Assembly (NCBI GenBank): GCA_963734595.1
Contig: CAVTHV010000016.1
Span: 152,250-216,249 of the forward strand
Length of the DNA stretch: 64,000 nt
Source of the DNA: an uncultured beta proteobacterium
Lineage (GTDB): Bacteria > Pseudomonadota > Gammaproteobacteria > Burkholderiales > SG8-41
Direction: 5' to 3'
The notes under the pieces are model-generated. The model was given only the letters and a program-made list of their open reading frames with translations. It had not been told where the DNA came from and did not search any database. The position numbers were made by a program, and so were the translations under genes. Shown piece after piece: positions 1,375 to 62,425 of the stretch. Within the stretch, counting starts at the first letter, position 1, and every line of letters begins with the position of its first letter.

Positions 1375-1448
1375 AATAGACAGGATTAACAGGATTTACA
1401 TGATTGACTTGATTACCCCGGGGGTTTAATCCTGTAAATCCTGTCCAT
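1375..1448. repeat. Inverted 9-mer tandem-repeat cassette, ACAGGATT family (copy 1)
   Basis: Left GACAGGATT-AACAGGATT-TACATGATT-GACTTGATT, short CCCCGGGGG spacer, right AATCCTGTA-AATCCTGTC. Confidence 0.9.
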
Positions 1449-1484
1449 TGCTTGTTTTCGAGGAAAGTTCTGCTCATTGCGGCG

Positions 1485-1637
1485 TCACTCGTGCGGCCGG
1501 TCGTCATCCATCAGCACGCGCTGCGCCGGCCCTTCGAGGTCGTCGAACTGGCCGCTGTGCACCGCCCACCAGAACACCCCGCCGATGACGAACACCAGCA
1601 CGAGGCTCAGCGGAATCAATAAATAAAGAATGTCCAT
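1485..1637 (-). CDS. ccoS: cbb3-type cytochrome oxidase assembly protein CcoS
   Basis: 50 aa MDILYLLIPLSL...WAVHSGQFDDLEGPAQRVLMDDD; directly downstream of ccoI. Confidence 0.93.
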   Translation of the reverse strand: MDILYLLIPLSLVLVFVIGGVFWWAVHSGQFDDLEGPAQRVLMDDDRPHE

Positions 1638-1684
1638 CGCTATGAATCTGTTGCTTCCGTTCAAAGCGCATACCAAAAAGCATC

Positions 1685-1809
1685 AGCCACAGAGGACACA
1701 GAGACACAGAGGACACAGAGGAAAAATAAACAACGAATTATGTCTCATAGCCTGTTGTTTCTAATAATAATTATTCTGTTTCTCTGTGATCTCTGTGTTC
1801 TCTGTGGCT
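1685..1809. repeat. Inverted 9-mer tandem-repeat cassette, CACAGAG family (copy 1)
   Basis: AGCCACAGAG-GACACAGAG-ACACAGAG-GACACAGAG, ~60 bp AT-rich spacer, CTCTGTGAT-CTCTGTGTT-CTCTGTGGCT; perfect 10-bp terminal inverted repeat. Confidence 0.92.
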
Positions 1810-1836
1810 ATAGGTCTTCGCTTTTGTTACGGACTT

Positions 1837-4476: not shown

Positions 4477-4894
4477 AAAGATTGAACCGCCAAGGCGCCA
4501 AGACGCCAAGAAGATCAAAAGCGGAGACACGAAGGACACAAAGGAAAACAAAAATAACTAGCCGCAAGCACGCCAAGAATTACAAAGACAAACGGGGAAC
4601 GGTGGATCTCGTAGCGGTCAATCACTGGTCACTGGTCACGATTTCCGATTCCCCACTCCCGACTTCCAATTCCCCATTTCCCATTTCCCATTCACGGCTT
4701 TTCCCGCTATCACCGGACGTTTTCGTAGCCGATCAGAACGTAGCGCGTCGGCATGGCTTGGTTTCCCTGAAAAGCAAAAGCTCCCGGTAATTAATCATTT
4801 TTTGTTTTCCTTCGTGTCCTTGGTGTCCTTCGTGTCCTTCTGTCTCGCTTTCGTTTTTCCTCCGTGTCCTCTGTGTCCTCTGTGTCTCCGCTTT
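4477..4894. repeat. Compound nested repeat cassette (CGCCAAG arm, GACACNAAG/GACACAGAG inverted arms, internal heptamer arrays)
   Basis: AACCGCCAAGG-CGCCAAGA-CGCCAAG at 4485-4510; 13-bp IR AAAGCGGAGACAC (4518-4530)/GTGTCTCCGCTTT (4882-4894); CCTTCGTGT-type units 4809-4840; GGTCACT units 4616-4640; TTCCCA-type heptamers 4649-4697. Confidence 0.88.
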
Positions 4895-6347: not shown

Positions 6348-6430
6348 ATGGACAGGCTTTACAAGATTAACAAGATTGAAATTCAGGAATCGTCGGGTAA
6401 ATCCTGTACATCCTGTTAATCCTGTCTATT
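6348..6430. repeat. Inverted 9-mer tandem-repeat cassette, ACAGGATT family (copy 2, opposite orientation to copy 1)
   Basis: GACAGGCTT-TACAAGATT-AACAAGATT ... AATCCTGTA-CATCCTGTT-AATCCTGTCTATT; the reverse complement of the right end matches 1375-1395 over 21 nt. Confidence 0.9.
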
Positions 6431-6464: not shown

Positions 6465-7495
6465 ATGTCATATTCGCTGCTGCGACCGCTGCTGTTCGCG
6501 CTGGACGCCGAAACCGCGCACCACCTGACGCTGAACTCGCTGAAGACTCCTGCAGCGGACCGGGCTCGCGGGCCTGCTCGCGCCGCGGCCCGCGGCCTGT
6601 CCGCGCAAGGTCATGGGCATCGACTTTCCCAACCCGGTCGGGCTCGCCGCCGGTCTCGACAAGAACGGCGACTACATCGACGCGCTCGCGGCGCTGGGCT
6701 TCGGCTTCATCGAGGTCGGCACCGTCACCCCGCGCCCGCAGCCCGGCAATCCGCGCCCGCGCCTGTTCCGCGTGCGCGAGGCGCAGGCGGTGATCAACCG
6801 CATGGGCTTCAACAACGACGGCGTCGACCGGCTCGTCGCCAACGTGCGGCGCGCGCGCTACCGCGGCGTGCTCGGCATCAACATCGGCAAGAATTTCGAC
6901 ACGCCGATCGGGCGCGCCGTCGACGATTACCTCGCCTGCCTGCGCAAGGTCTATGCGCTGGCGAGCTACGTGACGGTCAACATCTCGTCGCCCAACACCA
7001 AAAATCTGCGCCAGCTGCAGGACGCCGCCGAACTGGAAAACCTGCTCGGCGCGCTCAAAGCGGAACAGCGCAAGCTCGCCAACGAGCACGGCAAATACGT
7101 GCCGCTCGCGCTGAAGATCGCACCCGATCTCGAAGCCGCGCAGGTCGATGCGATCGCCGGACTGCTGCAGAAACACGCGATCGACGCCGTGATCGCGACC
7201 AACACCACGATCGCGCGCGACGGCGTGGCGGGCCTGCCGCACGGCGCCGAGACCGGCGGCCTGAGCGGCGCGCCGCTGACGCAGCGCTCGACCGCGATCG
7301 TCGCGCAGCTCGCCGGCGCGCTTCGACGGCAGCGTGCCCGTGATCGGCGTCGGCGGCATCATGAACGGCGCCGACGCCGCGCAAAAAATCCATGCCGGCG
7401 CGAGCCTCGTGCAGCTCTACACCGGGCTCGTCTACCGCGGCCCGCGGCTCGTGGCCGAATGTGTGGATGCCCTGAACGTGAAACGTGAATCGTGA
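6465..7495 (+). CDS. pyrD: Quinone-dependent dihydroorotate dehydrogenase (two frameshifts, probable sequencing errors)
   Basis: [54 protein letters not shown]; C-terminus [16 protein letters not shown] ends at TGA 7493-7495. Confidence 0.93.
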
Positions 7496-7579
7496 AATGT
7501 GAAACGTGAATCGTTGAGTCGCAGAAACCGGCCCCGCTATGCGGGTCTTACGTTTCACGTTTCACATTTCACGTTTTAC
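7475..7579. repeat. Inverted heptamer cassette, AACGTGA family
   Basis: AACGTGA-AACGTGA-ATCGTGA-AATGTGA-AACGTGA ... TTACGTT-TCACGTT-TCACATT-TCACGTT. Confidence 0.92.
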
Positions 7580-9133: not shown

Positions 9134-9136
9134 GAC

Positions 9137-9157
9137 GGGATTCGGGATTCAGGATTC
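9137..9157. repeat. Heptamer tandem arm, RGGATTC x3 (unpaired)
   Basis: GGGATTC-GGGATTC-AGGATTC starting 3 nt after the rnfB-like stop. Confidence 0.75.
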
Positions 9158-9208
9158 GGCAGGTGGGAATGCGATGCCGGTTCCGTGGATTAGTGCAGTC
9201 TTGATCAA

Positions 9209-9280
9209 GTCGTCCTCGCGAAGGCGGGGATCCAGCAACAACTTCTGAAAATCCTGGATTCCCGCCTTCGCGGGAATGAC
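9209..9280. repeat. REP/dRS3-like paired palindromes (copy 1)
   Basis: GTCGTCCTCGCGAAGGCGGGGATCCAG ... CTGGATTCCCGCCTTCGCGGGAATGAC; the right arm holds ATTCCC-N8-GGGAAT; between convergent genes. Confidence 0.88.
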
Positions 9281-10894: not shown

Positions 10895-11581
10895 GTGAAT
10901 TCCGCCAAACGCCACGAAATTTTCACGCGCCTGCGCGCCGCCAATCCCGCGCCGCGCACCGAACTCACATACGCTTCGCCGTTCGAACTGCTGGTCGCCG
11001 TCGTGCTGTCGGCGCAGGCCACCGACAAGAGCGTCAATCTCGCCACGCAAAAGCTGTTCCCCCATGCGAATACGCCGGAACGAATCCTGGCGCTTGGCCA
11101 GAGCGGGCTCGAGCAGCACATCAAGAGCATCGGCCTCTACCGCACCAAGGCCAAAAACATTCTCGCCACCTGCAAACTGCTGCTGGAACAACATGGCGGC
11201 GAGGTGCCGCAAACGCGCGAGGCGCTGGAGAGCCTGCCGGGGGTCGGGCGCAAAACGGCGAACGTGATCCTGAACACCGCGTTCGGCCAGCCGACGATCG
11301 CGGTGGACACGCATATCTTCCGCGTCTCCAACCGCACCGGCATCGCGCCCGGAAAGAACGTGGAGGAAGTCGAACGCAAGCTGCTCAAGTTCGTGCCGGA
11401 CGAGTTCAAGCACGACGCCCATCACTGGCTGATCCTGCACGGCCGCTACGTGTGCGTGGCGCGGAAGCCGAGGTGTTCGGCGTGCCTCATTAACGATTTG
11501 TGCGAGTTCACGCACAAATCCAGGGACTGGGGCTGGGGGCTAGGGACTAGGGGAAAAGTAAACACCTGTCCCTCGGAGTAA
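10895..11581 (+). CDS. nth: Endonuclease III
   Basis: LLVAVVLSAQATD, LPGVGRKTAN, VDTH, CVARKPRCSAC...C; last ~20 aa are encoded by the repeat cassette. Confidence 0.95.
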   Translation: MNSAKRHEIFTRLRAANPAPRTELTYASPFELLVAVVLSAQATDKSVNLATQKLFPHANTPERILALGQSGLEQHIKSIGLYRTKAKNILATCKLLLEQHGGEVPQTREALESLPGVGRKTANVILNTAFGQPTIAVDTHIFRVSNRTGIAPGKNVEEVERKLLKFVPDEFKHDAHHWLILHGRYVCVARKPRCSACLINDLCEFTHKSRDWGWGLGTRGKVNTCPSE

Positions 11582-11673
11582 AATCAAAATAGCGACCAGA
11601 CTGAACATTCGTCCCTGATCCCCAACCCCTAGCCCTTGATCCCTAGCCCCCAGTCCCCAGCCCCTAGTCCCTG
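11521..11673. repeat. Inverted heptamer cassette, AGGGACT/GGGGCT family
   Basis: CAGGGACTGGGGCTGGGGGCTAGGGACTAGGGG ... about nine GTCCCTG/GCCCCTA-type units; terminal IR CAGGGACT/AGTCCCTG. Confidence 0.9.
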
Positions 11674-11675
11674 AA

Positions 11676-12110
11676 ATGTTCAGCCCTTCCCGCGACGAAG
11701 CCCGCCGCTTCTTTTTCGACACCTGGGGAAAATACCGGCGCGGCGAAGCGCTCAGCGGGCTCGAACGGCCCGCGCTGGCGGTGATCAGCCTGCATCCCGA
11801 ATATCACGCGCTGCTCGATGCGCCGGAGCGTCATCTCGAACGCGACTTCCTGCCGGAAGACGGCGGCATCAACCCGTTTCTGCACCTGTCGCTGCACCTC
11901 GCGGTGGAGGAACAGCTTTCGATCGACCAGCCGGCCGGGATACTCGCGCTGTATCAGCGCCTGCTGCAGAAGACGGGTGCGGAGCACGATGCCAAGCACG
12001 CGCTGCTCGAATGCCTGGGGGAAATGCTGTGGCAGGCGCAGCGCCTCAACGCCGCGCCCGATCCGAAGATTTACCTGGCGTGCCTGGAAAAGAGGGCCGG
12101 ACAGCCCTGA
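11676..12110 (+). CDS. DUF1841 family protein
   Basis: MFSPSRDEARRFF, HPEYH, NPFLHLSLHL..EQ.SIDQP; usual neighbour of nth. Confidence 0.85.
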   Translation: MFSPSRDEARRFFFDTWGKYRRGEALSGLERPALAVISLHPEYHALLDAPERHLERDFLPEDGGINPFLHLSLHLAVEEQLSIDQPAGILALYQRLLQKTGAEHDAKHALLECLGEMLWQAQRLNAAPDPKIYLACLEKRAGQP

Positions 12111-48402: not shown

Positions 48403-48408
48403 TTCTCA

Positions 48409-48895: not shown

Positions 48896-48910
48896 AATCC
48901 GTTGTTTTAA

Positions 48911-50011: not shown

Positions 50012-50027
50012 TTTCTTCCAGATTCTT

Positions 50028-51718: not shown

Positions 51719-51724
51719 AAGATT

Positions 51725-51893: not shown

Positions 51894-52360
51894 TACTTCT
51901 TGCCAGCGGCGGGTTTGCGCACTTCCTTGATCGCATCCTGGAAATCGTCGATGCCTTCGAAGCTCTTGTACACCGACGCGAAGCGGATGTAGGCCACCTG
52001 GTCGAGCCGGCGCAGCTCGCGCATCACCATCTCGCCGATGCGGCGCGACATGATTTCGCGCTCGCCGAGCGAAAGCACCTCCTGCGTGATGGTCGCGATC
52101 GACTCGTCGACCATCTGCGTCGGCACCGGCCGCTTGTGCAGCGCGCGCATGAAACTCGTGCGCAGCTTGTCCAGATCGAATTCGGTGCGGCTGCCGTCCT
52201 GCTTGACGACCTGCGGCATGTGCAGCTCGACCGTCTCGTAGGTGGTGAAGCGCTTGTTGCAGCCGGTACAGCGCCGGCGGCGGCGTATGCTCTCGCCGTC
52301 GTCGCTCACCCGCGAGTCGATCACCTGCGTGTCGTCGGATTTGCAGAACGGGCACTTCAT
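51893..52360 (-). CDS. nrdR: Transcriptional regulator NrdR
   Basis: MKCPFC...V.DSR...IRRRR.C..C.KRFTTYE, ATP cone, [12 protein letters not shown]. Confidence 0.96.
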
Positions 52361-52364
52361 GCTC

Positions 52365-52456
52365 GAGGGATGAGGGATGAGGGATGAAGGATGAGGGATG
52401 AGAAGCACGAACCGCTCCCGGATTTCGCCTCACCCCTCACGCCTGACGCCTCATCC
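52365..52456. repeat. Inverted heptamer cassette, GAGGGAT family
   Basis: GAGGGAT x3, GAAGGAT, GAGGGAT ... CCTCACC-CCTCACG-CCTGACG-CCTCATC; the glyA stop lies in the right arm. Confidence 0.92.
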
Positions 52457-53704
52457 TGCCTTTCCATATACGGGGAACTTGTCGCACAGTTTCTTCACTT
52501 CGCCCGTCACGCGCTTGATCACCTTCTCGTCCTGCGGCGCGTCGATGACGTCGGCGATCAGATTGGCGAGCGTCTCGGCTTCGGGTTCTTTGAAACCCCG
52601 CGTCGTCATCGCCGGCGAGCCGAGGCGGATGCCGCTGGTCACCGTCGGCTTCTGCGGATCGTTGGGCACCGAGTTCTTGTTGACCGTGATGTTCGCGCGT
52701 CCGAGCACTGTTTCCGCCTCGCGCCCGGTCAGCTTGCCGCGCAGATCGACCAGGAACATGTGGCAATCGGTGCGGCCCGAAACGATGCGCAGGCCGCGTT
52801 CCTGCAGCGCCTTGGCCATCACGCGCGCATTGTCGAGCACCTGCTCCTGATAAAGCTTGAATTCATGCGTCATCGCTTCCTTGAGGGCGACCGCCTTGGC
52901 CGCGATCACGTGCATCAGCGGGCCGCCCTGCGTGCCCGGGAATATCGCCGAGTTGAGCACTTTTTCGTGCCCGGCACCGGCGAGTATCATGCCGCCGCGC
53001 GGGCCGCGCAGCGTCTTGTGGGTGGTGGTGGTCACGAAATCGGCGATGCCCACCGGACTCGGATAAAGGCCCGCGGCGACCAGTCCGGCGTAGTGCGCCA
53101 TGTCGGCCATCAGCAGCGCGCCGACGCGGTCGGCGATGGCGCGGAAGCGTTTCCAGTCGATCGCCAGCGAATAGGCCGAAGCGCCGGCAATGATGAGCTT
53201 GGGCTTGTGCACATGCGCGAGCTCCTCGACGTCGGCATAGTCGATTTCCTCGGTGTCGAGATTGAGCCCGTAGCCCACCGCGCTGTAGTATTTGCCGCTC
53301 ATGTTCACCGGGGAGCCGTGGGTGAGGTGCCCGCCGGCGTCGAGCGACATGCCGAGGATCACGTCCCCGGGGCGCAGCACGGCGGCATAGACCGCCTGAT
53401 TGGCTTGCGCGCCGGAATGCGGCTGCACGTTGGCGTAACCGGCATGGAAAAGTTTCTTCGCGCGATCGATCGCGAGCTGCTCCGCGATATCGACGAATTC
53501 GCAGCCGCCGTAATAGCGCTTGCCCGGATAACCTTCGGCGTACTTGTTGGTCAGCACCGAACCCTGGGCCTGCAACACGCGCGGGCTCGCGTAGTTTTCC
53601 GACGCGATCAGCTCGATGTGGTCTTCCTGACGCCGGTTCTCCTGTTCGATGGCATGCCAGAGTTCCGGATCGAAACCTGCGATGGTGTCTTTGCTCGAGT
53701 ACAT
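52451..53704 (-). CDS. glyA: Serine hydroxymethyltransferase
   Basis: [48 protein letters not shown]. Confidence 0.97.
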
Positions 53705-53736
53705 GGGTGCCTGCGTCCGATCGGCTAAATTGTTGA

Positions 53737-53745
53737 TTTTACCAT
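53737..53745 (-). promoter_or_regulatory. Putative extended -10 promoter of glyA
   Basis: Minus strand TGGTAAAAT (TGnTAnnnT) about 33 nt upstream of the ATG. Confidence 0.4.
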
Positions 53746-53925
53746 GCTTAACGCCAACCGGTCGCCTGTGGCCCGGCTCGCTGTAACAGTGGGGAAAGCC
53801 TGCTCATGCCGTCGCAGACACCTCGCCAAAACAGGGATCGCGGCGCCCGGCGGGCCCCGGTGTTTTTGCGCGACGCTCGCCTTGCCACGTATGATTGGCA
53901 CCCAAGCCGCGATCAAGGAGTTTGC

Positions 53926-54465
53926 ATGAAGTTTTTTCTGGCGTTGTCGCGCCTGATCGACGCCCTCAACGAACGTGTCGGCCACGCCACGGGCTGGCTG
54001 GTGCTGGCCGCGGTGCTGGTCAGCGCCGGCAATGCCGCCGTCCGCTATTCGTTCAACCTGAGTTCCAACGCGTGGCTCGAAATCCAGTGGTATCTGTTTT
54101 CGGCGGTGTTCCTGCTCGGCGCCGGCTACACGCTCAAGCGCAACGAGCACGTGCGCATCGACGTCATCGCCGGCAGGCTGTCCAGGCGCGCCCAGGCGTG
54201 GGTCGACATATTCGGCGCACTGCTGTTCCTGCTGCCGATGGCCGTGATCATCATGGTCCTGTCGTGGCCGATGTTCATGCAGGCGTACACCGGCCATGAA
54301 ATCTCGAGCGACGCGGGCGGGCTGATCCGCTGGCCGGTGAAACTGCTGATCCCGGCCGGCTTCGCCCTGCTGGTGTTGCAGGGTGTTTCTGAAATCATCA
54401 AACGCATTGCGTTCCTGCGCGGCATCACCGCCGAACCCGCAGGCGAGAAACGGGTAAACGGCTGA
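53926..54465 (+). CDS. TRAP transporter small permease DctQ
   Basis: SNAWLEIQWYLF, GYTL..NEHVRID, SSDAGGL.RWP.K. Confidence 0.92.
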   Translation: MKFFLALSRLIDALNERVGHATGWLVLAAVLVSAGNAAVRYSFNLSSNAWLEIQWYLFSAVFLLGAGYTLKRNEHVRIDVIAGRLSRRAQAWVDIFGALLFLLPMAVIIMVLSWPMFMQAYTGHEISSDAGGLIRWPVKLLIPAGFALLVLQGVSEIIKRIAFLRGITAEPAGEKRVNG

Positions 54466-55937
54466 TGGCGCACGAGATGATGGCGCCGCTCATGTTCGGC
54501 GCGCTGGTGGTGTTCCTGCTGTTCGGTTATCCCGTCGCTTTTTCCCTCGCCGCCAACGGCATTTTTTTCGGGCTGGTCGGCATCGAAATGGGACTGCTCG
54601 GGCCGGAACTGCTGCAGGCGCTGCCCGAGCGCGTCTACGGCATCATGCGCAACGACACGCTGCTCGCGATCCCGTTCTTCACCTTCATGGGGCTGATCCT
54701 CGAGCGCAGCGGCATGGCCGAGGATCTGCTCGACACCATAGGGCAGCTGTTCGGCACGATACGCGGCGGCCTCGCCTATGCGGTGGTGTTCGTCGGCGCG
54801 CTGCTCGCCGCCACCACCGGCGTGGTCGCGGCCTCGGTCATTTCGATGGGATTGATTTCGCTGCCGATCATGCTGCGCTACGGCTATTCGCCGCGCCTGG
54901 CATCGGGCGTGATCGCGGCCTCGGGCACGCTCGCCCAGATCATCCCGCCGAGCCTGGTGTTGATCGTGCTGGCAGACCAGCTCGGCAAATCGGTCGGCGA
55001 CATGTACCGGGGCGCGTTCGTTCCCGGCCTCACGCTCGCGGCGCTCTACATGGGCTACGTGCTGGTGGTCTCGTTCGCCAGGCCGGCCGCCGTGCCGGCG
55101 CTGCCGCCGCAGGCGCGCACGTTGCGGGGTGCGGCACTCGCCCGCCGCGTGGTGACGTCGCTGCTGCCGCCGCTCACGCTGATCTTCCTGGTGCTGGGCA
55201 CGATTTTCATGGGCGTCGCCACGCCGACCGAGGGCGGCGCCATGGGCGCAACCGGCGCGCTCGTGCTGGCGCTGGCGCGGCGCCGGCTCGATTTCAATCT
55301 GCTCAGACAGGCCATGGACTCGACCGCCAGGCTCACCAGTTTCGTGATTTTCATTCTGGTCGGCTCCACCGTGTTCGGCCTCATTTTCCGCGCGGTCGAC
55401 GGCGACCTGTGGGTGGAGAACCTGCTCGTGAATCTGCCGGGCGGCGCGATGGGGTTCCTGATCGTCGTCAACCTCCTGGTGTTCGTGCTCGCCTTTTTTC
55501 TCGATTTTTTCGAGATCGCGTTCATCCTGATCCCGCTGCTCGCGCCGGTGGCCGCCAAGCTCGGCATCGACCTCGTCTGGTTCGGCGTGATGCTGGGCAT
55601 CAACATGCAGACTTCGTTCATGCATCCGCCGTTCGGATTCGCGCTGTTCTACCTGAGGAGCGTGGCACCGCGCGAAGTGAAGACCTCGGACATCTACTGG
55701 GGAGCGATTCCCTTCGTCATCATCCAGCTTGCCATGGTGGCGCTGGTGATCGCCTTTCCGTCGTTCGTCACGGGCACGATCAGCGCAGAGACGCCCAAAG
55801 ACACATCCAATGTCGAGATCCGGATTCCCGCCCCGGGGCAGGAAAAAGACAAACGCGGCGAATCGAAAGGCGGCGCTTCATCCCCCGAGGACAAAACCGA
55901 CGCCGCAATCGAACGCATGCTGCGCGAAGGAAAATGA
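54465..55937 (+). CDS. TRAP transporter large permease DctM
   Basis: GYPVAFSL, LLAIPFFTFMG, SGTLAQIIPPS, NMQTSFMHPPFGFALFYL. Confidence 0.93.
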   Translation: MAHEMMAPLMFGALVVFLLFGYPVAFSLAANGIFFGLVGIEMGLLGPELLQALPERVYGIMRNDTLLAIPFFTFMGLILERSGMAEDLLDTIGQLFGTIRGGLAYAVVFVGALLAATTGVVAASVISMGLISLPIMLRYGYSPRLASGVIAASGTLAQIIPPSLVLIVLADQLGKSVGDMYRGAFVPGLTLAALYMGYVLVVSFARPAAVPALPPQARTLRGAALARRVVTSLLPPLTLIFLVLGTIFMGVATPTEGGAMGATGALVLALARRRLDFNLLRQAMDSTARLTSFVIFILVGSTVFGLIFRAVDGDLWVENLLVNLPGGAMGFLIVVNLLVFVLAFFLDFFEIAFILIPLLAPVAAKLGIDLVWFGVMLGINMQTSFMHPPFGFALFYLRSVAPREVKTSDIYWGAIPFVIIQLAMVALVIAFPSFVTGTISAETPKDTSNVEIRIPAPGQEKDKRGESKGGASSPEDKTDAAIERMLREGK

Positions 55938-55979
55938 CCGCGCATTGTTCGACCCGGGCCGCGTGTCGCCCGGGGAACG

Positions 55980-56939
55980 TCAGAAATGCGTGCTCAGCCC
56001 CGCGACGGCCGACCAGTCCGCCGTCAACTGCACGCCGTTCACATACTGGTAGAGCGGTTTCTGGATGAAACCGTACACCTGAAAACTTTTTGTCACGGCA
56101 TAGCTGATGCCGGGACTCAGAAACAGGAACTTGCCGCCGCTGTCCTCCGGCTCGGCCTGCAGCCCGCTGTCTCTTGCCCCGGTGCAGCGCATTCAGCTGG
56201 ATCATGAGCCCGATTTTCTCCGTCGCCTCGTAGCGATAACCCACGTCGAACGACACGCGCTGCCCGGGCCGGTAATCCTCCCTGCTGTTCAGCGGTGATT
56301 GCAGCGAGGCCCTGCACAAACCAGGAGGAACCGGAATTCGGCAGCACCTGGTTGTAGTAAGCACCCAGCAGCAGGTCCGTCGTGCCGGTGCCGGGCTGCA
56401 GGGTGCGCTCCGCCCGCTCGCCATCGGCGTTGCGCAGATCGCGGTCACCCGTCGGCAATTTAAGGCCGAAATTGAACCCATAAAAGCCCAACGACAGTTT
56501 CTCCTGGTTTTCGGACCGCAGTTGATAACGCCCGAGCACGCGCGCATCGCCCAGGCGCGTGAAGTCCCATTGCTCCGGCGCGCCGCTGTCGCTTTGAATG
56601 TGAGTGTGAAAGCGGTCGGAAACCGGCGCGGTGGCCGAGACGCCCCATTGCTCGTTGATGGTGTAATCGAGCGTGCCGAGATAATTTCTGTTGATGGTCT
56701 TCAGTTCATCGTGATCGCGGGGGACCTGTCCGACCACCACCTTGTCGCTGCCCGCCATGGGCTGGTCCTGGTTGATGTATTCATAGCGCAGATCAAGGCG
56801 CCATCCCGGTTCCGCCGCCAGGCCATGCAGGTTCCAGTTGGTATTGACCGCGCAGAATGCCGAACCGCATGACGCATGCAACGCGGCGCTCCACAAAGTG
56901 AAGGACAGCCGCCAGTATCGTGATGAATTTCAATTTCAT
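55980..56939 (-). CDS. Outer-membrane beta-barrel protein with N-terminal CxxxC motif (frameshifted; putative metal uptake)
   Basis: Signal peptide then ASCGSAFC; LGD..VLGRY, GLKLPTG, LQPGTGTTD, PLYQYVNG.QL, C-terminal F. Confidence 0.7.
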
Positions 56940-57042
56940 GTTCTTTCCTGTTCCGGATCGAAAACACCTCACGGGGCAAAAAAATTCCCGGCCCCGCATG
57001 TAAGGCTGATAGCCGCGGTATACCGCGGATTTGGCGGATGAA

Positions 57043-57426
57043 TCAGGAAAGAACAGGAGGAGCACGGGCGGCGCCCGGCAGAAACGACACCAGGTTCCGC
57101 AGGCTGACTGCATGCGAAACCGGTTTGATATGACCTAAGCCGTACTCCGGCGGGACGCCGATCGATACGGCAGGCGGCGGCGCAATGCCACCGGCAGTGG
57201 CAGTGCAAAATGCGCAATGCGGAACCCGGTGTTGCGCATCGGGTGCGGCAGGCCCATCGCCCACCGGCGCCATGAGCCTGGCGCCGCCGATGGTGCAGAT
57301 CTCGTGGAGGATCTGCGGCGGCTGCCCCGGGCTGGCGGCAGCGGCCAGCGGCCATAACGCCTGAAACGATATGCCGGCCAGGGCCAGCCATACGGCAAAC
57401 AATTTGCGGTAGCGACGGTTAAACAT
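57043..57426 (-). CDS. DUF2946 (CruR/CutF-like) leader protein
   Basis: N-terminal hydrophobic segment, EICT..G, HCAFC (CxxC), C-terminal ARAPP. Confidence 0.82.
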   Translation of the reverse strand: MFNRRYRKLFAVWLALAGISFQALWPLAAAASPGQPPQILHEICTIGGARLMAPVGDGPAAPDAQHRVPHCAFCTATAGGIAPPPAVSIGVPPEYGLGHIKPVSHAVSLRNLVSFLPGAARAPPVLS

Positions 57427-57496
57427 GGCCGCGTTTTATCATCGATCCGGCCGCCCGATCAACGCCGAAACTATTGCAGCGCCGACAATCGGCACG

Positions 57497-58597
57497 CTAT
57501 TTCTTGCCGGGCCGGGCTGAGGCGGCGCTGTACATGAAGTTGTCGTAGCTGTTTTCCGCAATGCGGAACCACAGGAACTCGTCGTCGCGGAACTTGCGCC
57601 ACGGCTCGTAGATTTTCTTGAACTCCGGGTACTTGGCGCCGAGTTCGTCGTACAGCTCGTACGCGACCTTGAGGCACGCTTCCATCACCGGGCGCGGGAA
57701 TGCCCGCAACTGCGCGCCGGCGGCCACCAGCTTGCGCAGCGCTTCGGTGTTCTTCGCATCGTATTTGGCGACCATGTGGATATTGGCCTCGGCACACGCG
57801 GTCTCGAGCGCCTCCTGGTAACTCTTCGGCAGCGACTGCCACTGCTTGATGTTCACATAGACGGAAAGCTGCGCCGAGCCCTCCCACCAGCCGGGATAGT
57901 AGTAGTACTTCGCGACCTTGTTGAGGCCGAGCTTCTCGTCGTCGTACGGCCCGACCCATTCCGCCGCGTCTATCGTGCCGCGCTCGAGCGCCGGATAGAT
58001 GTCGCCGCCGCCGATCTGCTGCGGCACCACGCCCAGGCGCGCCAGGATCTGGCCGGCCAGCCCGGGGATGCGCATCTTGAGCCCCTTCAGATCGGCCACC
58101 GATTTGATTTCCTTGCGATACCAGCCCGCCATCTGGGTGCCGGTGTTGCCGCACGGAAAATTGATGATGTTGTGGGCTTTGAACAGCTCGCGCGTCAGCT
58201 CCATGCCGCCGCCGTAATACATCCACGCGTTCTGCTGGCGGCAGTTCATGCCGAACGGCAGCGCCGTGTCGAAGGCAAACGCCGGATTCTTGCCGACGTA
58301 GTAATAGCTCGCCGTCTGCCCGCACTCGACCGTGCCGTTCTGCACCGCGTCGAGCACCTGCAGGGGGGGCACGATTTCCCCGCCGGCGAAGACGCGGATC
58401 TCGAACTTGCCATCCGTCAACCGCGACACGCGGCCGGCGATCTGCTCGGCGATGCCGAACAGGGCATCGAGGCTCTTCGGAAAACTCGACGCCATGCGCC
58501 AGCGGATCTGCGGCTGGGTTTGCGCGATCGCCGGCGCGGCGACGGTGCCCGCCGCAAGGCCGAGCCCGGTTTTTTTCAGGAAATCACGTCTTTTCAT
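57497..58597 (-). CDS. TRAP substrate-binding protein DctP (TakP-like, Tat signal)
   Basis: MKRRDFLK, SSFPKSLD, GNTG.QM.GW, D..EWVGPYDDEKLG, YYPGWWE. Confidence 0.93.
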   Translation of the reverse strand: MKRRDFLKKTGLGLAAGTVAAPAIAQTQPQIRWRMASSFPKSLDALFGIAEQIAGRVSRLTDGKFEIRVFAGGEIVPPLQVLDAVQNGTVECGQTASYYYVGKNPAFAFDTALPFGMNCRQQNAWMYYGGGMELTRELFKAHNIINFPCGNTGTQMAGWYRKEIKSVADLKGLKMRIPGLAGQILARLGVVPQQIGGGDIYPALERGTIDAAEWVGPYDDEKLGLNKVAKYYYYPGWWEGSAQLSVYVNIKQWQSLPKSYQEALETACAEANIHMVAKYDAKNTEALRKLVAAGAQLRAFPRPVMEACLKVAYELYDELGAKYPEFKKIYEPWRKFRDDEFLWFRIAENSYDNFMYSAASARPGKK

Positions 58598-58650
58598 ATT
58601 CTCCTCCTAGCTCGAACGAATTGAATGACTGCGATGAACAACGAAGATCT

Positions 58651-58789
58651 AATAGCCACAGAGATCACAGATGAAAAACCTTACCCTGCCAACAATACAT
58701 GCCCGTGAACGTGGCTTTTCTCTGTAATCTCTGTGCACATCTGCGGCTGAAGCTTCAGGTTCTGATTTATCTGCGTTCATCGGTGGCTA
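58651..58789. repeat. Inverted 9-mer cassette, CACAGAG/CGCAGAT family (copy 2)
   Basis: AATAGCCACAGAG-ATCACAGAT ... CTCTGTAAT-CTCTGTGCA-CATCTGCGGCT ... ATCTGCGTT-CATCGGTGGCTA; terminal TAGCCAC/GTGGCTA. Confidence 0.82.
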
Positions 58790-58798
58790 CGTCAGATT

Positions 58799-60142
58799 CT
58801 AATCTCCCGCGATCGTCATGCGCCCGACCAGGATCGACCCGCACTGGCGCGAGCCGCGCCGGTTCACGTCGTTGCCGACGGCGACGATGTCGCGGAACAT
58901 GTCCTTCAGGTTGCCGGCAATGGTGATCTCCTGCACCGGGTAGGCGATCACGCCGTTCTCCACCCAGTAGCCGGCCGCGCCGCGCGAATAATCGCCGGTC
59001 ACCGGGTTGACGCCCTGCCCCATGCAGTTCGGTCACCAGCAGGCCGCTGCCCATTTTCCCGAGCAGCGCGGCAAAATCGTCGCCGGTGTCCTGCAGAATC
59101 AGGTTGTGGTTGCCGCCGGCGTTGCCGGTGGACTTCAGACCCGAGCTTGCGCGCCGAGTAGCTGCCGAGAAAATAGCCCTGCACCACGCCGTCTTTCACG
59201 ACGTCGCGGGCCTGCGTGGCCACGCCTTCGTCGTCGAACGGGCTGCTCGCCAGCGCTTTCCGGATGTGCGGCAGGTCGCTGATGTGCACGAACGGCGCGA
59301 ACACCTGCTGGCCGATGCTGTCGAGCAGGAACGACGACTTGCGGTAGAGGCTGCCGCCGCTCACCGCGGACACGAAATGCCCGAGCAGGCTCGGGGCGAC
59401 CGGCGCCTCGAACAGCACCGGCACCTGGGTGGTCGCGATCTTTTGCGCGCCGAGGCGCTTCAACGCGCGCTCGCCGGCGCGCCTGCCCACGGTTTCCGGC
59501 GCCGCCAGCTCCGCCGGATCGCGGCTGGTTTCGTACCAGTCGTCGCGCTGCATCGCATCGTTCTTGCCCGCGATCACCGAGCACCAGACGCTATGCCGCG
59601 ATGTCGGATAGCCGGCCAGAAAACCCAGCGAGTTGCCGTAGATGAACTGCGATTGCTGGGTCGAGACGGTCGCGCCCTCGGAATTGGCGATGCGCGGATC
59701 GACCGCGAAGCCCGCCGCCTCGCAGGCCTTGCGCCAGCTCGATCGCGCGCTCGACCGGCACGTCCCACGGATGCCACAGGTCGAGGTCGGGAATGTCGCG
59801 CGCGAGCAGGTCGGCATCGGCCAGCCCGGCACAGTCGTCGGACGCCGTAAACCGCGCGATCGACAGCGCGGCATCCACGGTGTCGCGCAGTGCCTGCGGC
59901 GAAAAGTCGGAGGTGCTGGCATGCCCCGTCTTCTTGCCGATGTAGACCGTGACGCCGATGCCCTTGTCGCGGTTGTATTCGATGGTTTCGACCTCGCCGC
60001 AGCGCACGGTCACGGTCTGGCCGAAGCCTTCGCTGACCTCGGTGTCGGCCGCGCTGGCGCCATGCCGTTGCGCGTGATCGAGAATGTCCCGCGCCATCTG
60101 CCTGAGCGTATCGGCGCTGTATGAAAAATGCGTGTCTGCCAT
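58799..60142 (-). CDS. pmbA: Metalloprotease PmbA/TldE (several frameshifts)
   Basis: [62 protein letters not shown]. Confidence 0.93.
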
Positions 60143-60230
60143 GATATGGTGGATTCCGCCGCCGGATGCGGCTCGAGGCTCGAAAAGAGCGTTATCATAA
60201 CAGCTTCATTCGCAATCGATTAATCCATCC

Positions 60231-60737
60231 GTGACCGACGAAATCCAGCCAAGCAAGACGCAGCGCAAGAAGCAGATGGCCGAGCTGCAGGATCTCGGTG
60301 CCGAGCTGGTCGAGCTCTCCGAGCAGCAGCTCGCGCAGATCACGCTGCCCGAATCCCTGCATGATGCGGTCACCGCCGCCCGGCAAACGACCAAATTCGA
60401 GGCCCGCCGCCGGCAGCTGCAGTACATCGGCAAACTGATGCGCACTATCGACCCCGGGCCGATACGCGCTCAGCTCGACATCTGGCAAAACACTTCGCGC
60501 GAGCACACCGCGTGGCTGCACCTCGTCGAGCGCTGGCGCGAGCGCCTGCTTGCTGACGAAGCCGCGCTGCATCAGTTCGTCAGCGAATATCCGCATGCCG
60601 ACATCCAGCAGCTGCGCACGCTGATCCGCAATGCGCTGCGCGAGCGCGAGTTGCACAAGCCGCCCAAGAGCTATCGCGCGCTGTTCCACTCCCTGCGCGA
60701 GCTGATGCGGAAAGAAGCGCGGCCGAGTGACCAGTGA
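60231..60737 (+). CDS. yjgA: Ribosome biogenesis factor YjgA (DarP)
   Basis: SKTQRKKQM..LQ.LG..L, RRRQLQYIGKLMR, ERWRERL, LR.LIRNA. Confidence 0.93.
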   Translation: MTDEIQPSKTQRKKQMAELQDLGAELVELSEQQLAQITLPESLHDAVTAARQTTKFEARRRQLQYIGKLMRTIDPGPIRAQLDIWQNTSREHTAWLHLVERWRERLLADEAALHQFVSEYPHADIQQLRTLIRNALRERELHKPPKSYRALFHSLRELMRKEARPSDQ

Positions 60738-60789
60738 GCGGCTGCGCAATGCTTCACTATTTGCCATTGACCAATTTACCATGCAGCCT

Positions 60790-61378
60790 ATGACTGAAGA
60801 ACTTCTGATCGGCCTGGTCTCCATCAGCGACCGGGCCTCCAAAGGCGTTTACGAAGACCAGGGCATACCCGCGCTCCAGGAATGGTTCGGCAAAGCGCTG
60901 GCCACGCCGTGGCGCATGGAGACGCGCCTCATTCCAGACGAGCAGCCGGTGATCGAAGCGACGCTCAGGGACCTGGTCGACACGGCAGGCTGCCACCTCG
61001 TGCTCACCACCGGCGGCACCGGTCCCGCGCCGCGCGACGTGACGCCCGAAGCCACGCTGGCGGTCGCCGACAAGGTGATGCCGGGCTTCGGCGAGCAGAT
61101 GCGGCAGGTGAGCCTGAAGTTCGTGCCGACCGCGATCCTGTCGCGGCAGGTCGCGGTGATCCGCAAAAATGCGCTGATCATCAACCTGCCGGGACAGCCG
61201 AAGGCGATCAGGGAAACGCTCGAAGGCCTGAAGGACGAAAGCGGCAAGACCGATCGTCAACGGCATCTTCGCCGCGGTGCCCTACTGCATCGACCTGATC
61301 GGCGGGCCGTACATCGAGACGAACGAGGCGGTGGTCAAGGCGTTCCGCCCGAAGTCGGCGATACGGCCGAAAACCTGA
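60790..61378 (+). CDS. mog: Molybdopterin adenylyltransferase (frameshift near 61250)
   Basis: IGLVSISDRAS.GVYED.G, TTGGTGPAPRDVTPEAT, PTAILSRQ, NLPGQPK; GIFAAVPYCIDLIGGPY in a shifted frame. Confidence 0.94.
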
Positions 61379-61593
61379 ATTTAGCCGCCAAGGCCGCCAA
61401 GAACGCCAAGAAGAGCAACAACAAAAATAAAACAAACTATCAAAAACGTCTACGGCACATGCTGCAATGGTGGCATGTGATAATTCGATTCTGTTTGATC
61501 GACCAAGTTTCGCTGTTGAACTTCTTGGCGTTCTTGGCGTCCTTGGCGGCTAATATCTGTTTTTGAATTTCTTGGCGATCTTGGCGGCTAAAT
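61379..61593. repeat. Inverted CGCCAAG-family cassette with duplicated right arm
   Basis: 61381-61413 vs 61521-61553 are 32/33 reverse-complementary; second right arm TTGAATTTCTTGGCGATCTTGGCGGCTAAAT. Confidence 0.93.
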
Positions 61594-61598
61594 AATAA

Positions 61599-62289
61599 AT
61601 GGAAACAACTACTCGAAGCTATCGAAATAGAAACCGGCCGGAACCCGACCGCCAGCGTGATCTGGATGCACGGGCTCGGCGCCGACGGCAACGACTTCGC
61701 GCCGGCCGTGCAGGAATTCGACCTCGCCGACGCGCCGCCCATCCGCTTCATTTTCCCGCACGCGCCGATGCAGCCGGTGACCATCAACAACGGCTACGTG
61801 ATGCGCGCCTGGTACGACGTGAGCTTCGGCGATCTCGAAGGCAAGTCGCGCCAGGCCGACGAGAAGGGCGTGCGCGCCTCGCAGGCCGCGATCGGCAAAC
61901 TGATCGAACGCGAAGCCGCGCGAGGCATTCCATCTAAAAACATCGTATTGGCAGGATTCTCCCAGGGCGGCGCGATGGCGCTGCAGACCGCCTTGCGCTA
62001 TCCGCAACGGCTCGCGGGCGTGATGGCGCTCTCGTGCTACCTGCCGCTCGCCGCGAGCTTCCCGCAGGAAGCGGCGCCCGCCAACGCGAAAATCCCGATT
62101 TTCATGGCGCACGGCACCTACGATCCGGTGGTGCCGTACGCGATGGGCTCGACCTCGCGCGATCTGCTGATGCAAGCGGGCTACGACGTCGAATGGTACG
62201 ACTATCCGATGCAGCACTCGGTGTGCCCGGACGAGATTCAGGATATCAGCATGTGGCTTAACCGCGTGCTGGCTGTGCGGCAAAGCTGA
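61599..62289 (+). CDS. Carboxylesterase/phospholipase (EstB-like; one extra base just after the ATG)
   Basis: IW.HGLGADG.DF, PVTIN.GY.MRAWYD, GFSQGG, HG..DPVV, Y.M.HSV. Confidence 0.9.
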
Positions 62290-62380
62290 ATAACGGGTGT
62301 TGCAGGGAAGTAGTGTTCAGGTGTCCAGCAGCGCGCCCTCATTCACGGGGAGTTATTTTAACCCGCTGTTTTTATTATAT

Positions 62381-62425
62381 TTTTCCTTCGTGTCCTTCGT
62401 TTTTTCTTCGCGTCCTTCGCGTTCA
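62381..62425. repeat. Unpaired right arm of the GACRCGAAG 9-mer family
   Basis: TTTTCCTTCGTGT-CCTTCGTTT...TCTTCGCGT-CCTTCGCGTTCAA; shares TTTTCCTTCGTGTCCTT with 4805-4821. Confidence 0.7.

Follow-up and report, generated by a model that had tools for sequence, protein, structure and literature searches.

Inverted tandem-repeat arrays between the genes of a beta proteobacterium as probable termini of small hairpin cassettes in two classes

Repeat arrays in the window and in the genome

The window, a stretch of 64,000 nt from the genome of an uncultured beta proteobacterium, carries arrays of short tandem repeats among genes that include those for a P-type ATPase, alanine dehydrogenase, endonuclease III (nth), nusB, lumazine synthase, ribD, nrdR and glyA (Table 1). 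A preliminary description had listed 19 sites, and sequence printing, TRF and an inverted-repeat search found the described repeat content at all 19. Clear arm-loop-arm hairpins lie at 1375, 1685, 6348, 7475, 11521, 31010, 51725, 52365, 58651 and 61379; the sites at 4477 and 15773 are composite or nested, those at 18779 and 37035 are imperfect pairs, and lone arms or remnants are found at 9137, 40935, 47681 (weak), 48409 (a remnant) and 62381. The window copies are without exception ORF-less derivatives, nested composites or lone arms, and no PF05635/TIGR02436 gene lies inside any of the window elements. The claim that such elements occupy most gene junctions was overstated, as there are about 19 for about 55 junctions in the window, and genome-wide a strict array is present in 254 of the 2390 gaps of at least 60 nt.

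Table 1. Repeat elements of the window, with their arms, immediate surroundings and the evidence for each
Position (nt)	Element	Arms and surroundings	Evidence
1379-1445	ORF-less hairpin	ACAGGATTN 9-mer arms 1379-1414 and 1427-1445	TRF, sequence, RNA fold z -5.3
1686-1809	ORF-less CACAGAG element	arms 1688-1722 and 1781-1806 with AGC/GCT terminal extensions; 58-nt loop, 25% GC; flanked by small ORF and P-type ATPase gene	fold -63.7 kcal/mol, z -9.0
4478-4894	composite nested element	CGCCAAG left arm alone at 4486-4511; GACACGAAG arm 4526-4554, partner at 4799-4844; heptamer arrays TCACTGG and ATTTCCC at 4622-4693; TCCTCTGTG arm 4858-4886	TRF, inverted-repeat search, sequence
6349-6427	ORF-less ACAGGATT-type 9-mer hairpin	left arm degenerate	TRF, sequence, strict detector; fold z -2.7
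7475-7579	AACGTGA heptamer hairpin	5.7 copies vs 3.9 on opposite arm; alanine dehydrogenase gene downstream	fold z -6.5
9136-9159	lone CGGGATT heptamer array	3.4 copies	TRF, sequence, strict detector
11521-11676	ORF-less GGGRCTA/CCCTAGY heptamer hairpin	3' of endonuclease III (nth); arm family in common with the S23p-carrying element on contig C26, 304082-304522	TRF, sequence; fold z -3.9
15776-16090	composite CGCCAAG element	left arm 15782-15809; right arms 15956-16043 and beyond; nested GACACAGAAG-type arm at 15823-15850	
18779-18893	degenerate heptamer pair	GAGTGGG-like left, CCATTCA x4 right	TRF, sequence
31003-31115	heptamer hairpin	left GTTGAGN, right CTCAACA	inverted-repeat search, TRF, sequence
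37033-37113	CCTCATC array	6.7 copies; short GAGG-rich partner on left	TRF, sequence, strict detector
40946-40964	lone TCCCTCA array	2.7 copies	TRF, sequence
47679-47706	weak lone CCCTTNA heptamer run		sequence
48409-48432	remnant of ACAGGATT element	nusB/lumazine synthase gene junction	sequence, junction comparison
51727-51890	ORF-less CGCCAAG element	ribD/nrdR junction; 105-nt loop	TRF, inverted-repeat search; fold z -9.5
52365-52456	GAGGGAT heptamer hairpin	glyA/nrdR junction; directly adjoins nrdR start codon	TRF, sequence, junction comparison; fold z -3.7
58630-58790	CACAGAG element (58654-58735) nested in degenerate CGCCGAT-type element		sequence; fold z -6.2
61379-61593	ORF-less CGCCAAG element	arms 61379-61412 and 61520-61553; additional right arm 61566-61593	
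62380-62419	lone right-arm arrays	TCCTTCGTG and CTTCGCG units	TRF, sequence

Strict arrays were defined as a 6-mer recurring at least three times with a period of 7-10. The window holds 18 of them, whereas 50 shuffles of 200-nt blocks averaged 0.26 and never exceeded 2; the genome holds 530, against 13 in one shuffle. One of the window's 18, at 41211, is a coding GCCGCC run. TRF arrays of period 7-10 number 710 in the non-coding 19% of the genome and 448 in the remaining 81%, as divided by a crude gene caller. Genome-wide, the spacer of 82 inverted pairs measures 16-208 nt; the next longer one is 634 nt.

The fixed polarity noted in the window holds for the genome, where CGCCAAG pairs are convergent in 58 cases and divergent in none and CACAGAG pairs in 21 and none (79 vs 0 overall); the left arm is purine-rich in 88 of 89 pairs. 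The spacers are indeed AT-rich, with a median GC of 0.33 for CACAGAG and 0.42 for CGCCAAG elements vs 0.63 for the genome. All eight window elements that were folded form long stems (z -2.7 to -9.5). The arms measure 25-57 nt, and the stems, of 25-40 bp, are as long as expected of an intervening sequence (IVS)-type cassette (about 20 bp or more). The window had been described as free of transposase, integrase and nuclease genes; this is right for the four cargo families searched for in the genome, all of them absent from the window, but one of ten window proteins scanned is endonuclease III. The latter is a repair enzyme.

Two classes of arms and the genes between them

Class 1 consists of tandem-heptamer arms, and its full copies carry a four-helix-bundle gene of the PF05635/TIGR02436 family (S23p, Avd-like). 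The single such gene of this genome, on contig C26 at 304122-304517 in the guaB-guaA junction, lies between inverted GGGACTA/CCCTAGC heptamer arrays, in agreement with the earlier suggestion that 7-mer arms flank these genes in other bacteria. Within the same bacterial family, period 7 scored best in 24/30 left and 23/30 right flanks of S23p genes; in a sample of the phylum it was best in 21/28 left and 25/28 right flanks. A score of 12 or more was reached by just 3 of the 105 control segments taken at a distance of 750-900 nt in the family. The pairing extends across phyla. The stronger flank of 79 loci had period 7 in 55, period 8 in 3 and a weak signal in 21, whereas five control flanks had period 7 and one had period 9, and inverted arms with at least 14 matches were found at 50/79 loci vs 2/79 controls. 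G exceeds C in the upstream arm at 46 of 50 of these cross-phylum S23p loci.

Class 2 arms consist of three 7-nt CRCNRAK cores (CGCCAAG, CACAGAG, CGCCGAT, CGCAAAG and others), each followed by a linker of 1-3 nt, and terminate in a TTGAAC or TTAGC extension. What had been called 8/9-mer units are such conserved cores with their variable linkers. Full copies carry a GxxExxY PD-(D/E)XK nuclease gene (TIGR04256/PF13366). Convergent arms of period 8-10 with such an end are found in the window at 1685, 51725, 58651, 61379 and in parts of 4477 and 15773. The genome has four TIGR04256/PF13366 matches, all outside the window, and its GxxExxY genes lie between CGCCGAT or CGCAAAG 9/10-mer arms, as had been suggested for 9-mers: an intact gene between CGCCGAT arms adjoins an empty CGCCGAT element, CGCCGAT arms also enclose a 23-bit remnant, and CGCAAAG arms enclose a frameshifted copy. 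A cargo HMM search of intergenic regions revealed no GxxExxY remnants beyond these known copies. Of the further cargo that had been suggested, GIY-YIG genes lie outside such arms and DUF559 genes are flanked by a different type of palindrome in the genome.

Unit length tracks cargo, as had been suggested. Beside GxxExxY genes of the family, period 7 was best in 0/30 flanks on either side, and 25/30 left flanks had periods of 8-10. Inverted arms with at least 17 matched nt stand about 10-155 nt from the gene at 25/30 loci of the family, and arms with at least 15 matches and the same cores at 22/29 loci of the phylum sample. Full-length CGCCAAG and CACAGAG elements with a GxxExxY gene occur in relatives, which makes the window copies ORF-less members of the same lineages. 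The proposal that the window elements are empty cassettes whose enzymes lie elsewhere is borne out in so far as full copies exist elsewhere in the genome and in relatives, but the 83.6%-complete assembly contains no CGCCAAG- or CACAGAG-type GxxExxY gene, against about 85 and 40 arm pairs.

Arm core and protein have diverged together. On a GxxExxY tree (24 rows, 9 core states) the core changes 10 times, whereas 1000 label shuffles averaged 17.1 changes and never fell below 13, and the CGCCAAG clade covers five genera. Protein and core thus descend together, which could reflect plain linkage instead of recognition of the arms by the protein. All of 31 sequences have G29, Y37, D73, E83 and Q97, at least 90% have E34 and K85, and a structure model (pLDDT 95.9) has the PD-(D/E)XK fold; on both counts the candidate nuclease looks active.

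Nesting and turnover at gene junctions

When orthologous junctions were compared among sister species, and also across two co-assembled strains, both presence/absence and replacement of elements were seen, which fits the putative mobile or cassette-exchange system that had been suggested. One junction can hold different repeat families in sister species, and empty sites also exist. At nusB/lumazine synthase, complete elements are present in G005 (88 nt) and G003 (76 nt), and there are none in G004 and G006 (12 nt each). The ribD-nrdR element has an orthologue with a diverged loop in G003, and its site is empty in G006 (32 nt). The CGCCGAT element surrounding the one at 58654 is kept in G006, with none in G004, and the junction of the element at 61379 has a homologous loop in G003, a GACACAAAG element in G001 and a CACAGAG element in G005. 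Similar short CTTCAC-type runs lie at the junction of the weak run at 47679 in four sister genomes. The two co-assembled strains have 12 of 22 arrays in common. In six paired elements compared between them, identity is 97.8% in the flanks, 65.5% in the arms and 53.6% in the loops; one site has different CGCCAAG subtypes, another a nested newcomer, and an S23p element occurs in just one of the two strains. Turnover at the same junctions is rapid. Genomes of the family have anything from 0 to 85 CGCCAAG arms per strand, and the arm was found in 0/16 genomes from other families of the order.

Some heptamer hairpins are old and have kept their place throughout the genus. Fixation at the same junctions across distant relatives, with no empty/filled polymorphism, had been named as evidence against a mobile system; the polymorphism was seen, but the nrdR-glyA hairpin is found in 6/6 genomes of the genus, with units that differ by 1-2 substitutions between species; some of the heptamer class therefore evolves in situ. 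The S23p elements upstream of rfbA and in the yebC-ruvC junction occupy the same positions in different genera, with differing units and complementary arms. Together with the nrdR-glyA hairpin, they look more like vertical descent in which the ORF is maintained than like frequent movement. Such behaviour would suit non-mobile host hairpins (mRNA punctuation, stabilisers, attenuators or G-quadruplex/i-motif formers) that arise locally by polymerase slippage of 7-9-nt units, with quasi-palindrome template switching keeping the arms complementary and small genes merely tending to sit there. In keeping with this, the junction orientations of the elements (co-directional/convergent/divergent, 53/16/12 of 81) are roughly as in the background (1773/547/586), and Rehm et al. 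interpret the GGGAATC arrays of Xanthomonas, with 70-75 convergent pairs, as G4 formers and found the arrays unconnected with mobile elements (PMC4692102). As a general account host hairpins are nevertheless unlikely. About 85 loci have Class 2 arms of one and the same 25-nt sequence, and in other families of the phylum GxxExxY genes stand between arms with these cores, for which local slippage cannot account. The agreement of arm core with the protein tree, the empty sites and family exchange at single junctions, the nesting and the range of CGCCAAG counts (0 to 85 per strand) among genomes of one genus argue in the same direction.

The loops are unrelated between copies. Among 82 loops, beyond nested arms and motifs of 15-23 nt, two pairs only share sequence. 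As candidate transposed copies these were rejected, being orthologous loci of the two strains. Loops of ORF-less copies have no homology to cargo HMMs, to the interiors of full-length elements or, strain duplicates excepted, to each other, so descent by internal deletion remains putative. The two commonest types of ORF-less CGCCAAG arm occur 18 and 14 times, identical down to the linkers but around unrelated loops, which a simple copy-and-decay model does not predict, and linkers agree between both arms in only 21/58 CGCCAAG pairs. Neither transposition events nor target-site duplications nor donor copies were observed; at empty-versus-filled sites, which are diverged or composite, no duplication is recognisable. 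An origin of the ORF-less copies as ordinary MITEs, derived from a DDE or serine/tyrosine-recombinase transposon elsewhere and with S23p and GxxExxY as passengers, is very improbable on this evidence: their interiors lack the common sequence of MITEs, polymorphic sites have no recognisable duplication, the arm core tracks the GxxExxY tree, and the GxxExxY gene of about 130 aa is the sole gene between the arms in 25/30 and 22/29 loci, so that a transposase would not fit in. In favour of such an origin are the terminal inverted repeats (about 25-35 nt, with conserved outer extensions), the small size of about 110-210 nt, intergenic placement and a copy number that varies between relatives.

Proposed origin and relation to known systems

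We consider the arrays to be, probably, the terminal inverted repeats of small hairpin cassettes in two classes, the window copies being ORF-less, composite or lone arms. A transcript through an element would form a stem of 25-40 bp that may be cleaved by RNase III, whose gene is present in the genome, as in the rRNA intervening sequence; cleavage would allow insertion within an operon to be tolerated, with the mRNA punctuated. In the Coxiella intervening sequence an S23p ORF and a 28-bp terminal stem accompany tandem GACAGAT heptamers, the first of which is the site of RNase III cleavage (PMC4990558). A GxxExxY nuclease would recognise the core repeats, move or copy Class 2 elements and serve ORF-less copies in trans. 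The loops of old elements may be preferred landing sites for new copies, after which old interiors and outer arms would decay; AT-rich unique loops, lone arms and 'hot' junctions would follow from such landing and decay. Heptamer arms would also change in place, by slippage and arm-to-arm template switching.

A wider reading, which we put forward tentatively and regard as rather doubtful, is that these are cross-phylum mobile cassettes without a classical transposase, in which a protein of about 130 aa reads, cuts or lays down termini built of 7-nt cores. That protein would be a minimal PD-(D/E)XK nuclease or an Avd-like pentameric four-helix bundle, depending on class. The near-universal polarity, with the C-poor arm first on both strands, would be a footprint of arm synthesis, possibly through templated repeat addition at both 3' ends of a break; the polarity could instead come from selection against an exposed C-rich, Rho-loading RNA arm.

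To our knowledge no function has been assigned to PF05635/TIGR02436 or PF13366/TIGR04256, which are very common 'hypothetical' families, and we found no description in the literature linking repeat arrays with S23p or GxxExxY cargo. Three further puzzles have been known for decades as unconnected observations: how rRNA intervening sequences arose, the tandem heptamer arrays in cyanobacteria and xanthomonads, and the surplus of heptamer repeats that bacteria show in general. The present data connect them: each gene family is wrapped in its own type of inverted tandem-repeat arm, S23p in many phyla and GxxExxY in the phylum sample, and empty wrappers are abundant in genomes. If the wider reading were true, one mechanism would lie behind rRNA intervening sequences, the STRR and Xanthomonas heptamer arrays and the heptamer excess. 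For annotation, hundreds of 'SSR' or 'palindrome' loci per genome would become classifiable as cassette relics, and small genes within conserved operons (in guaB-guaA, ispD-ispF and yebC-ruvC and upstream of rfbA and gmk) as insertions.

Among known systems, the Correia elements of Neisseria are short non-autonomous MITEs with terminal inverted repeats of about 26 nt, whose hairpins are cleaved by RNase III. The likeness lies in placement at gene junctions, transcription with the neighbours and stem folding; Correia copies have a conserved core and a TA target duplication, whereas the loops here are unrelated between copies and no duplication was seen. The elements are also abundant, extragenic and palindromic like those of REP/BIME systems, which are mobilised by RAYT (an IS200/IS605-type Y1 transposase) on single-stranded hairpins, and landing in hairpin loops would suit an enzyme for single-stranded DNA. 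An origin of this kind has next to no likelihood, however: Y1_Tnp (PF01797) has 0 matches in the assembly (83.6% complete, so a gene may be missed), arms of 25-40 nt made of tandem sub-repeats around 16-208-nt loops are unlike REP units, and the genes between the arms belong to other families.

PF05635 is similar to Avd of diversity-generating retroelements (PMC10053308). Against bAvd (PF22296) the S23p protein found here scores 31.5 bits and against the Avd NCBIfam model 36 bits, both below cut-off, whereas heptamer arms are not a feature of these retroelements. Heptamer SSRs (GGGAATC in Xanthomonas; GGGGA(C/T)T, STRR, in Nostoc/Calothrix; TAACTGA in Beggiatoaceae) are likewise intergenic tandem heptamers, often in convergent pairs, and this genome has 18 period-7 inverted pairs. 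A GGGGACT-type unit is also found in this genome. The Xanthomonas arrays include 70-75 convergent plus/minus-strand pairs, which are potential stem-loops, and vary in length between close species; heptamer arrays of these groups are viewed as SSRs, G4 formers or translation signals, and the accounts of the arrays name neither a cargo gene nor a link to mobile elements (PMC4692102; PMC4679880).

The closest known system is the ORF-bearing 23S rRNA intervening sequence of Coxiella, Leptospira and others, which has a PF05635/S23p gene and a stem of about 28 bp of terminal inverted repeats around the ORF. Its 5' arm contains three tandem GACAGAT heptamers of strain-variable copy number, its ORF is prone to decay, and its stem is cleaved by RNase III (PMC4990558); rRNA-gene insertions of CPR bacteria are reported to include ORF-less forms at the same sites (bioRxiv 10.1101/2024.02.27.582315). 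Rfam detected no RNA genes in the window, and none of its elements lies in a 23S rRNA helix. The elements described here differ in being placed between protein genes (ribD-nrdR-glyA, nusB-ribH) by the hundreds per genome, in having a second class with GxxExxY cargo and units of 8-10 nt, and in nesting within and replacing one another.

Tandem arrays and the anatomy of their arms

Tandem units of 7-10 nt are present at all 19 of the sites named in the preliminary description. A strict detector, which required a 6-mer repeated at least three times at a period of 7-10, returned 18 arrays in the window, one of which (41211) is a coding GCCGCC run, whereas 50 block shuffles averaged 0.26 and never exceeded 2. 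Across the assembly (G000; 3.98 Mb in 38 contigs, 62.9% GC), in which the window is C16:152250-216249, it returned 530 arrays, compared with 13 in one shuffle. We mapped genes with a crude GC3-based caller that covered 81% of the genome, and for this reason the following junction-type counts and coding/non-coding splits are approximate: TRF at period 7-10 placed 710 arrays in the non-coding 19% of the genome and 448 in the remaining 81%; the shares of elements at co-directional, convergent and divergent junctions approximately follow those of the background; and, rather than most gene junctions as first described, elements occupy about one third of those in the window and, across the genome, no fewer than 254 of 2390 gaps. 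Several small contigs (C1-C13, C19, C22, C28, C32, C33 and C38) match parts of the large ones at 91-96% identity, so the bin holds a second strain and genome-wide copy counts are slightly inflated. Rfam at gathering thresholds gave no match in the window, and a look through sequencing runs listed no RNA run that contains it. The observation of arrays is confirmed, and the data presented here support the main points of its initial interpretation.

The arrays form inverted pairs, 82 of which have spacers of 16-208 nt, with the next spacer only at 634 nt; pairs are short-range (200 nt or less) in 84 of 103 inverted and 10 of 58 direct cases. The fixed polarity reported for the window holds throughout, with convergent to divergent ratios of 58:0 for CGCCAAG and 21:0 for CACAGAG, and, when all periods are taken together, 88 of 89 inverted pairs have the purine-rich arm on the left. 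Two arm families dominate. Family B (57 of the 82 pairs) consists of (A)TTGAAC or TTTAGC, three CGCCAAG cores with linkers between them, a loop (median 113 nt, range 65-208; median GC 0.42) and then the mirror image, while family A (21 pairs) consists of AGC, three copies of CACAGAG(NN), a loop (median 59 nt, GC 0.33) and its mirror image. These layouts show that the arrays read earlier as 8/9-mers are real but that their units are a fixed 7-nt core with a linker of 1-3 nt, three per arm. True heptamer arrays (GAGGGAT, AACGTGA, GGGRCTA, CGGGATT and others) range from about 3 to 7 copies. In 21 of 58 pairs the linkers of one arm agree with those of the other, a number above both the expectation of 9.2 and the maximum of 18 reached in 2000 shuffles, so that paired arms are related, though their complementarity is not always perfect. 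Long stems were obtained for all eight elements folded, with z-scores of -2.7 to -9.5.

Smaller features accompany the arms (see table). A mini hairpin, TACCC(G/C)TCAAG(C/G)GGGTA, lies between core units inside right-hand CGCCAAG arms and resembles an even smaller element nested within them. A GAGGGAT array ends 4 nt or less from the start codon of nrdR, where an obvious Shine-Dalgarno sequence is absent; in the nrdR mRNA it is the pyrimidine-rich arm (AUCCCUC repeats) that precedes the AUG. The window also holds a separate palindromic repeat, GTCGTCCYCGCGAAGGCGGGGAYCC paired with GGATWCCCGCCTTCGCGGGAATGAC, a 104-nt copy of which is an indel between the co-assembled strains (C12 versus C13), and a near-duplicate of about 95 nt of a gene 3' end, TTCTGCTTCACCCACTCT...GCCTGCGGCA..., adjoining a lone TCCCTCA array.

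Locations of GxxExxY copies, cassettes at shared operon junctions and smaller features (C, contigs of G000; L, loci carrying small genes with their flanks)
Feature	Location	Remark
Intact GxxExxY copy	Between CGCCGAT arms	Empty CGCCGAT element adjoining
GxxExxY remnant, 23 bits	Between CGCCGAT arms	
Frameshifted GxxExxY copy	Between CGCAAAG arms	
S23p/GxxExxY cassettes	Upstream of rfbA	L072, L073, L075, L080, L083, L086; L080 from unpublished genome G013
S23p/GxxExxY cassettes	yebC-ruvC	L087, L088, L093
S23p/GxxExxY cassettes	ispD-ispF	L040, L041; L040 from unpublished genome G013
Broken DUF559 (PF04480) gene	C14:400-1200 (L009)	CCCCTTGAAGGGGGAGG-type palindromes on flanks
CACAGAG loops with TTTAAAACAACG	G000 C11:67573, C25:27, C26:170731, C31:82826	Examples
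Gene with TTTAAAACAACG motif before its start codon	C31:~51870	
Mini hairpin	G001 (sister genome) ribD-nrdR junction; L054 right flank; G000 C13:~4560-4590	
GAGGGAT array by nrdR	Window 52358-52402	
GTCGTCCYCGCGAAGGCGGGGAYCC/GGATWCCCGCCTTCGCGGGAATGAC repeat	Window 9209-9280 and 12127-12255	
Near-duplicate of gene 3' end	Window 40960-41190	

Cargo genes and the arms that carry them

The only TIGR02436/PF05635 gene of the genome (S23p, Avd-like) lies at the guaB-guaA junction, with GGGACTA-type heptamers on its left and CCCTAGC on its right, and this element is the filled form of window element 11521. Three GxxExxY genes (TIGR04256/PF13366) are described from the genome, all within 9/10-mer arms. 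Both kinds of cargo suggested at first from other bacteria, a four-helix-bundle gene with 7-mers and GxxExxY with 9-mers, are therefore seen here, the latter within 9/10-mers. The two further candidates fared differently: no arms surround GIY-YIG in this genome, and the DUF559 gene is broken and flanked by a different palindrome in place of these arms. With its CCCCTTGAAGGGGGAGG-type palindromes, DUF559 adds a third case of a small gene paired with a repeat type of its own. A Y1 transposase gave no match in the assembly, in which an RNase III gene is present. Arm type and cargo define two cassette classes, to which the window arrays belong as ORF-less or fragmentary copies.

The same association extends well beyond this genome. 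Among 61 genomes of the same bacterial family, inverted arms with 17 or more matches lie near the gene at 25 of 30 GxxExxY loci, with the cores CGCAGAG, CGCCAAG, CGCAAAG, CACGGAA, CGCCGAT, CACAGAG, ACAGGAT and CGCAGAT; since CGCCAAG and CACAGAG are among them, full-length elements of both exist. Unit length tracks cargo, as had been proposed: in this family period 7 scored best at S23p in 24 of 30 flanks on the left and 23 of 30 on the right, whereas at GxxExxY it was best in 0 of 30 on either side and periods 8-10 were best in 25 of 30 on the left. Control segments 750-900 nt away reached the score threshold in 3 of 105 cases. Across 201 genomes of the phylum, period 7 again led at S23p, in 21 of 28 flanks on the left and 25 of 28 on the right, and 22 of 29 GxxExxY loci had arms with the cores listed above and 15 or more matches.

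A scan of named genomes across phyla yielded 80 S23p loci, 79 of them usable, from Chloroflexota, Acidobacteriota, Planctomycetota, Bacteroidota, Clostridia, Verrucomicrobiota, Gemmatimonadota and other groups. Scoring the stronger flank of each locus gave period 7 in 55 and period 8 in 3, with 21 weak; in the control flanks of these loci period 7 came out in 5 and period 9 in 1. Inverted arms of at least 14 matches occur at 50 of the 79 loci (control flanks, 2), and in 46 of these 50 the upstream arm contains more G than C. Cassettes are also seen at the same operon junctions in different genera, where the heptamer units vary and the arms remain complementary (see table).

A tree of 26 GxxExxY proteins, with 24 rows labelled by arm core (9 states), requires 10 core changes, compared with a mean of 17.1 and a minimum of 13 in 1000 label shuffles. 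Labels are shared among related genomes, and linkage alone could yield this difference. The CGCCAAG clade spans five genera. The tree shows that the arms belong to the element; recognition of the arms by the protein does not follow. GxxExxY keeps the PD-(D/E)XK residues E34, D73, E83 and K85, along with G29, Y37 and Q97, and its model (pLDDT 95.9) has a minimal nuclease fold. Foldseek gave weak, generic PD-(D/E)XK matches (TM 0.37-0.55) to Cas4, lambda exonuclease, MGME1, Hjc and a splicing endonuclease, which are silent on substrate. A sequence search of the PDB returned only engineered RecA fusions, which we rejected as spurious.

Turnover at junctions and in loops

The three-core CGCCAAG pattern occurs 85 times per strand in this genome. 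Of the 24 other family genomes, 14 have it at 0-44 per strand, including two congeners at 0/0 and 0/1, and it is absent from all 16 genomes sampled from the other families of the order; a reversed-pattern control gave 0 in every genome. We compared orthologous junctions with those of five congeners whose genes are about 80% identical. The presence/absence polymorphism sought there is found at ribD-nrdR, where two genomes have a CGCCAAG element, two have other content, one has a remnant and one an empty site of 32 nt. It is also found at 58651, where three genomes have CACAGAG and one each has a CGCCGAT element, a lone arm or nothing at all; here the copy in the window is nested within degenerate CGCCGAT arms. 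At nrdR-glyA, instead, a heptamer hairpin is present in 6 of 6 genomes with units that differ by a few substitutions, and this hairpin is old and has drifted in place. Junction 61379 carries CGCCAAG with homologous loops in two genomes, GACACAAAG in one and CACAGAG in one. At guaB-guaA, where our genome has the S23p element, three congeners have heptamer hairpins that lack an ORF and use other units, and one has nothing. In-place evolution accounts for part of the heptamer class.

The second strain in the assembly, 91-96% identical, shares 12 of 22 arrays over 131 kb aligned. For six paired elements the identity between strains is 97.8% in flanks, 53.6% in loops and 65.5% in arms. At one site the two strains hold CGCCAAG elements of different subtypes whose loops are unrelated; at another a 9-mer-type element is nested in an 8-mer-type one; and between a gene and gmk one strain has an S23p element that the other lacks. 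Loops diverge far beyond their flanks, yet this is at least partly replacement by other elements; 'hypermutation' was considered, and we claim no raised mutation rate. Two loop-sharing pairs were rejected as transposed copies, their flanks being near-identical and a contig-contig search showing the second strain. Four metagenome contig sets compared with window 44000-63900 gave short pieces, many of them from relatives at 90-95% identity, and the contigs end at the arms; one X1 joint skips 58611-58708, off the element borders, and we base no conclusion on this comparison.

Many copies have identical arms and unrelated loops. Nested insertion with loss of the older interior was seen directly at a two-strain site, and may account for part of these copies. 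Loops matched full-length elements only in nested arms, with unrelated interiors, and matched each other only as strain duplicates and in short motifs; two loops searched against phage and plasmid collections gave no match. Remnant HMMs built from 26 GxxExxY and 28 S23p translations, run on 36,031 six-frame pieces from all intergenic regions, returned known copies only (one S23p match at an E-value of 0.2 was ignored) and did not recover the 23-bit GxxExxY remnant, itself a known copy, an outcome compatible both with descent of the loops from cargo genes and with another origin. A short TTTAAAACAACG motif recurs in several CACAGAG loops, together with an inner AAACAACG/CGTTGTTT hairpin.

Relation to described systems

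Taken as the best-supported inferences, RNase III would process the stems and a nuclease would drive mobility of the elements. In the literature collection that we searched, no paper was found that ties the arrays to S23p or GxxExxY. PF05635 genes have been described wedged between cas genes, in passages where repeats go unmentioned (PMC3936711). Convergent heptamer pairs in Xanthomonas were interpreted as formers of G4 or stem-loop structures, with no link to mobile elements in the relevant passages (PMC4692102); a cargo gene is likewise unmentioned there. The nearest described system is the ORF-bearing intervening sequence (IVS) of 23S rRNA. According to the passages on the Coxiella IVS, an S23p ORF lies within a 28-bp terminal stem with three tandem GACAGAT heptamers, whose copy number varies by strain, and RNase III cuts at the first repeat (PMC4990558).
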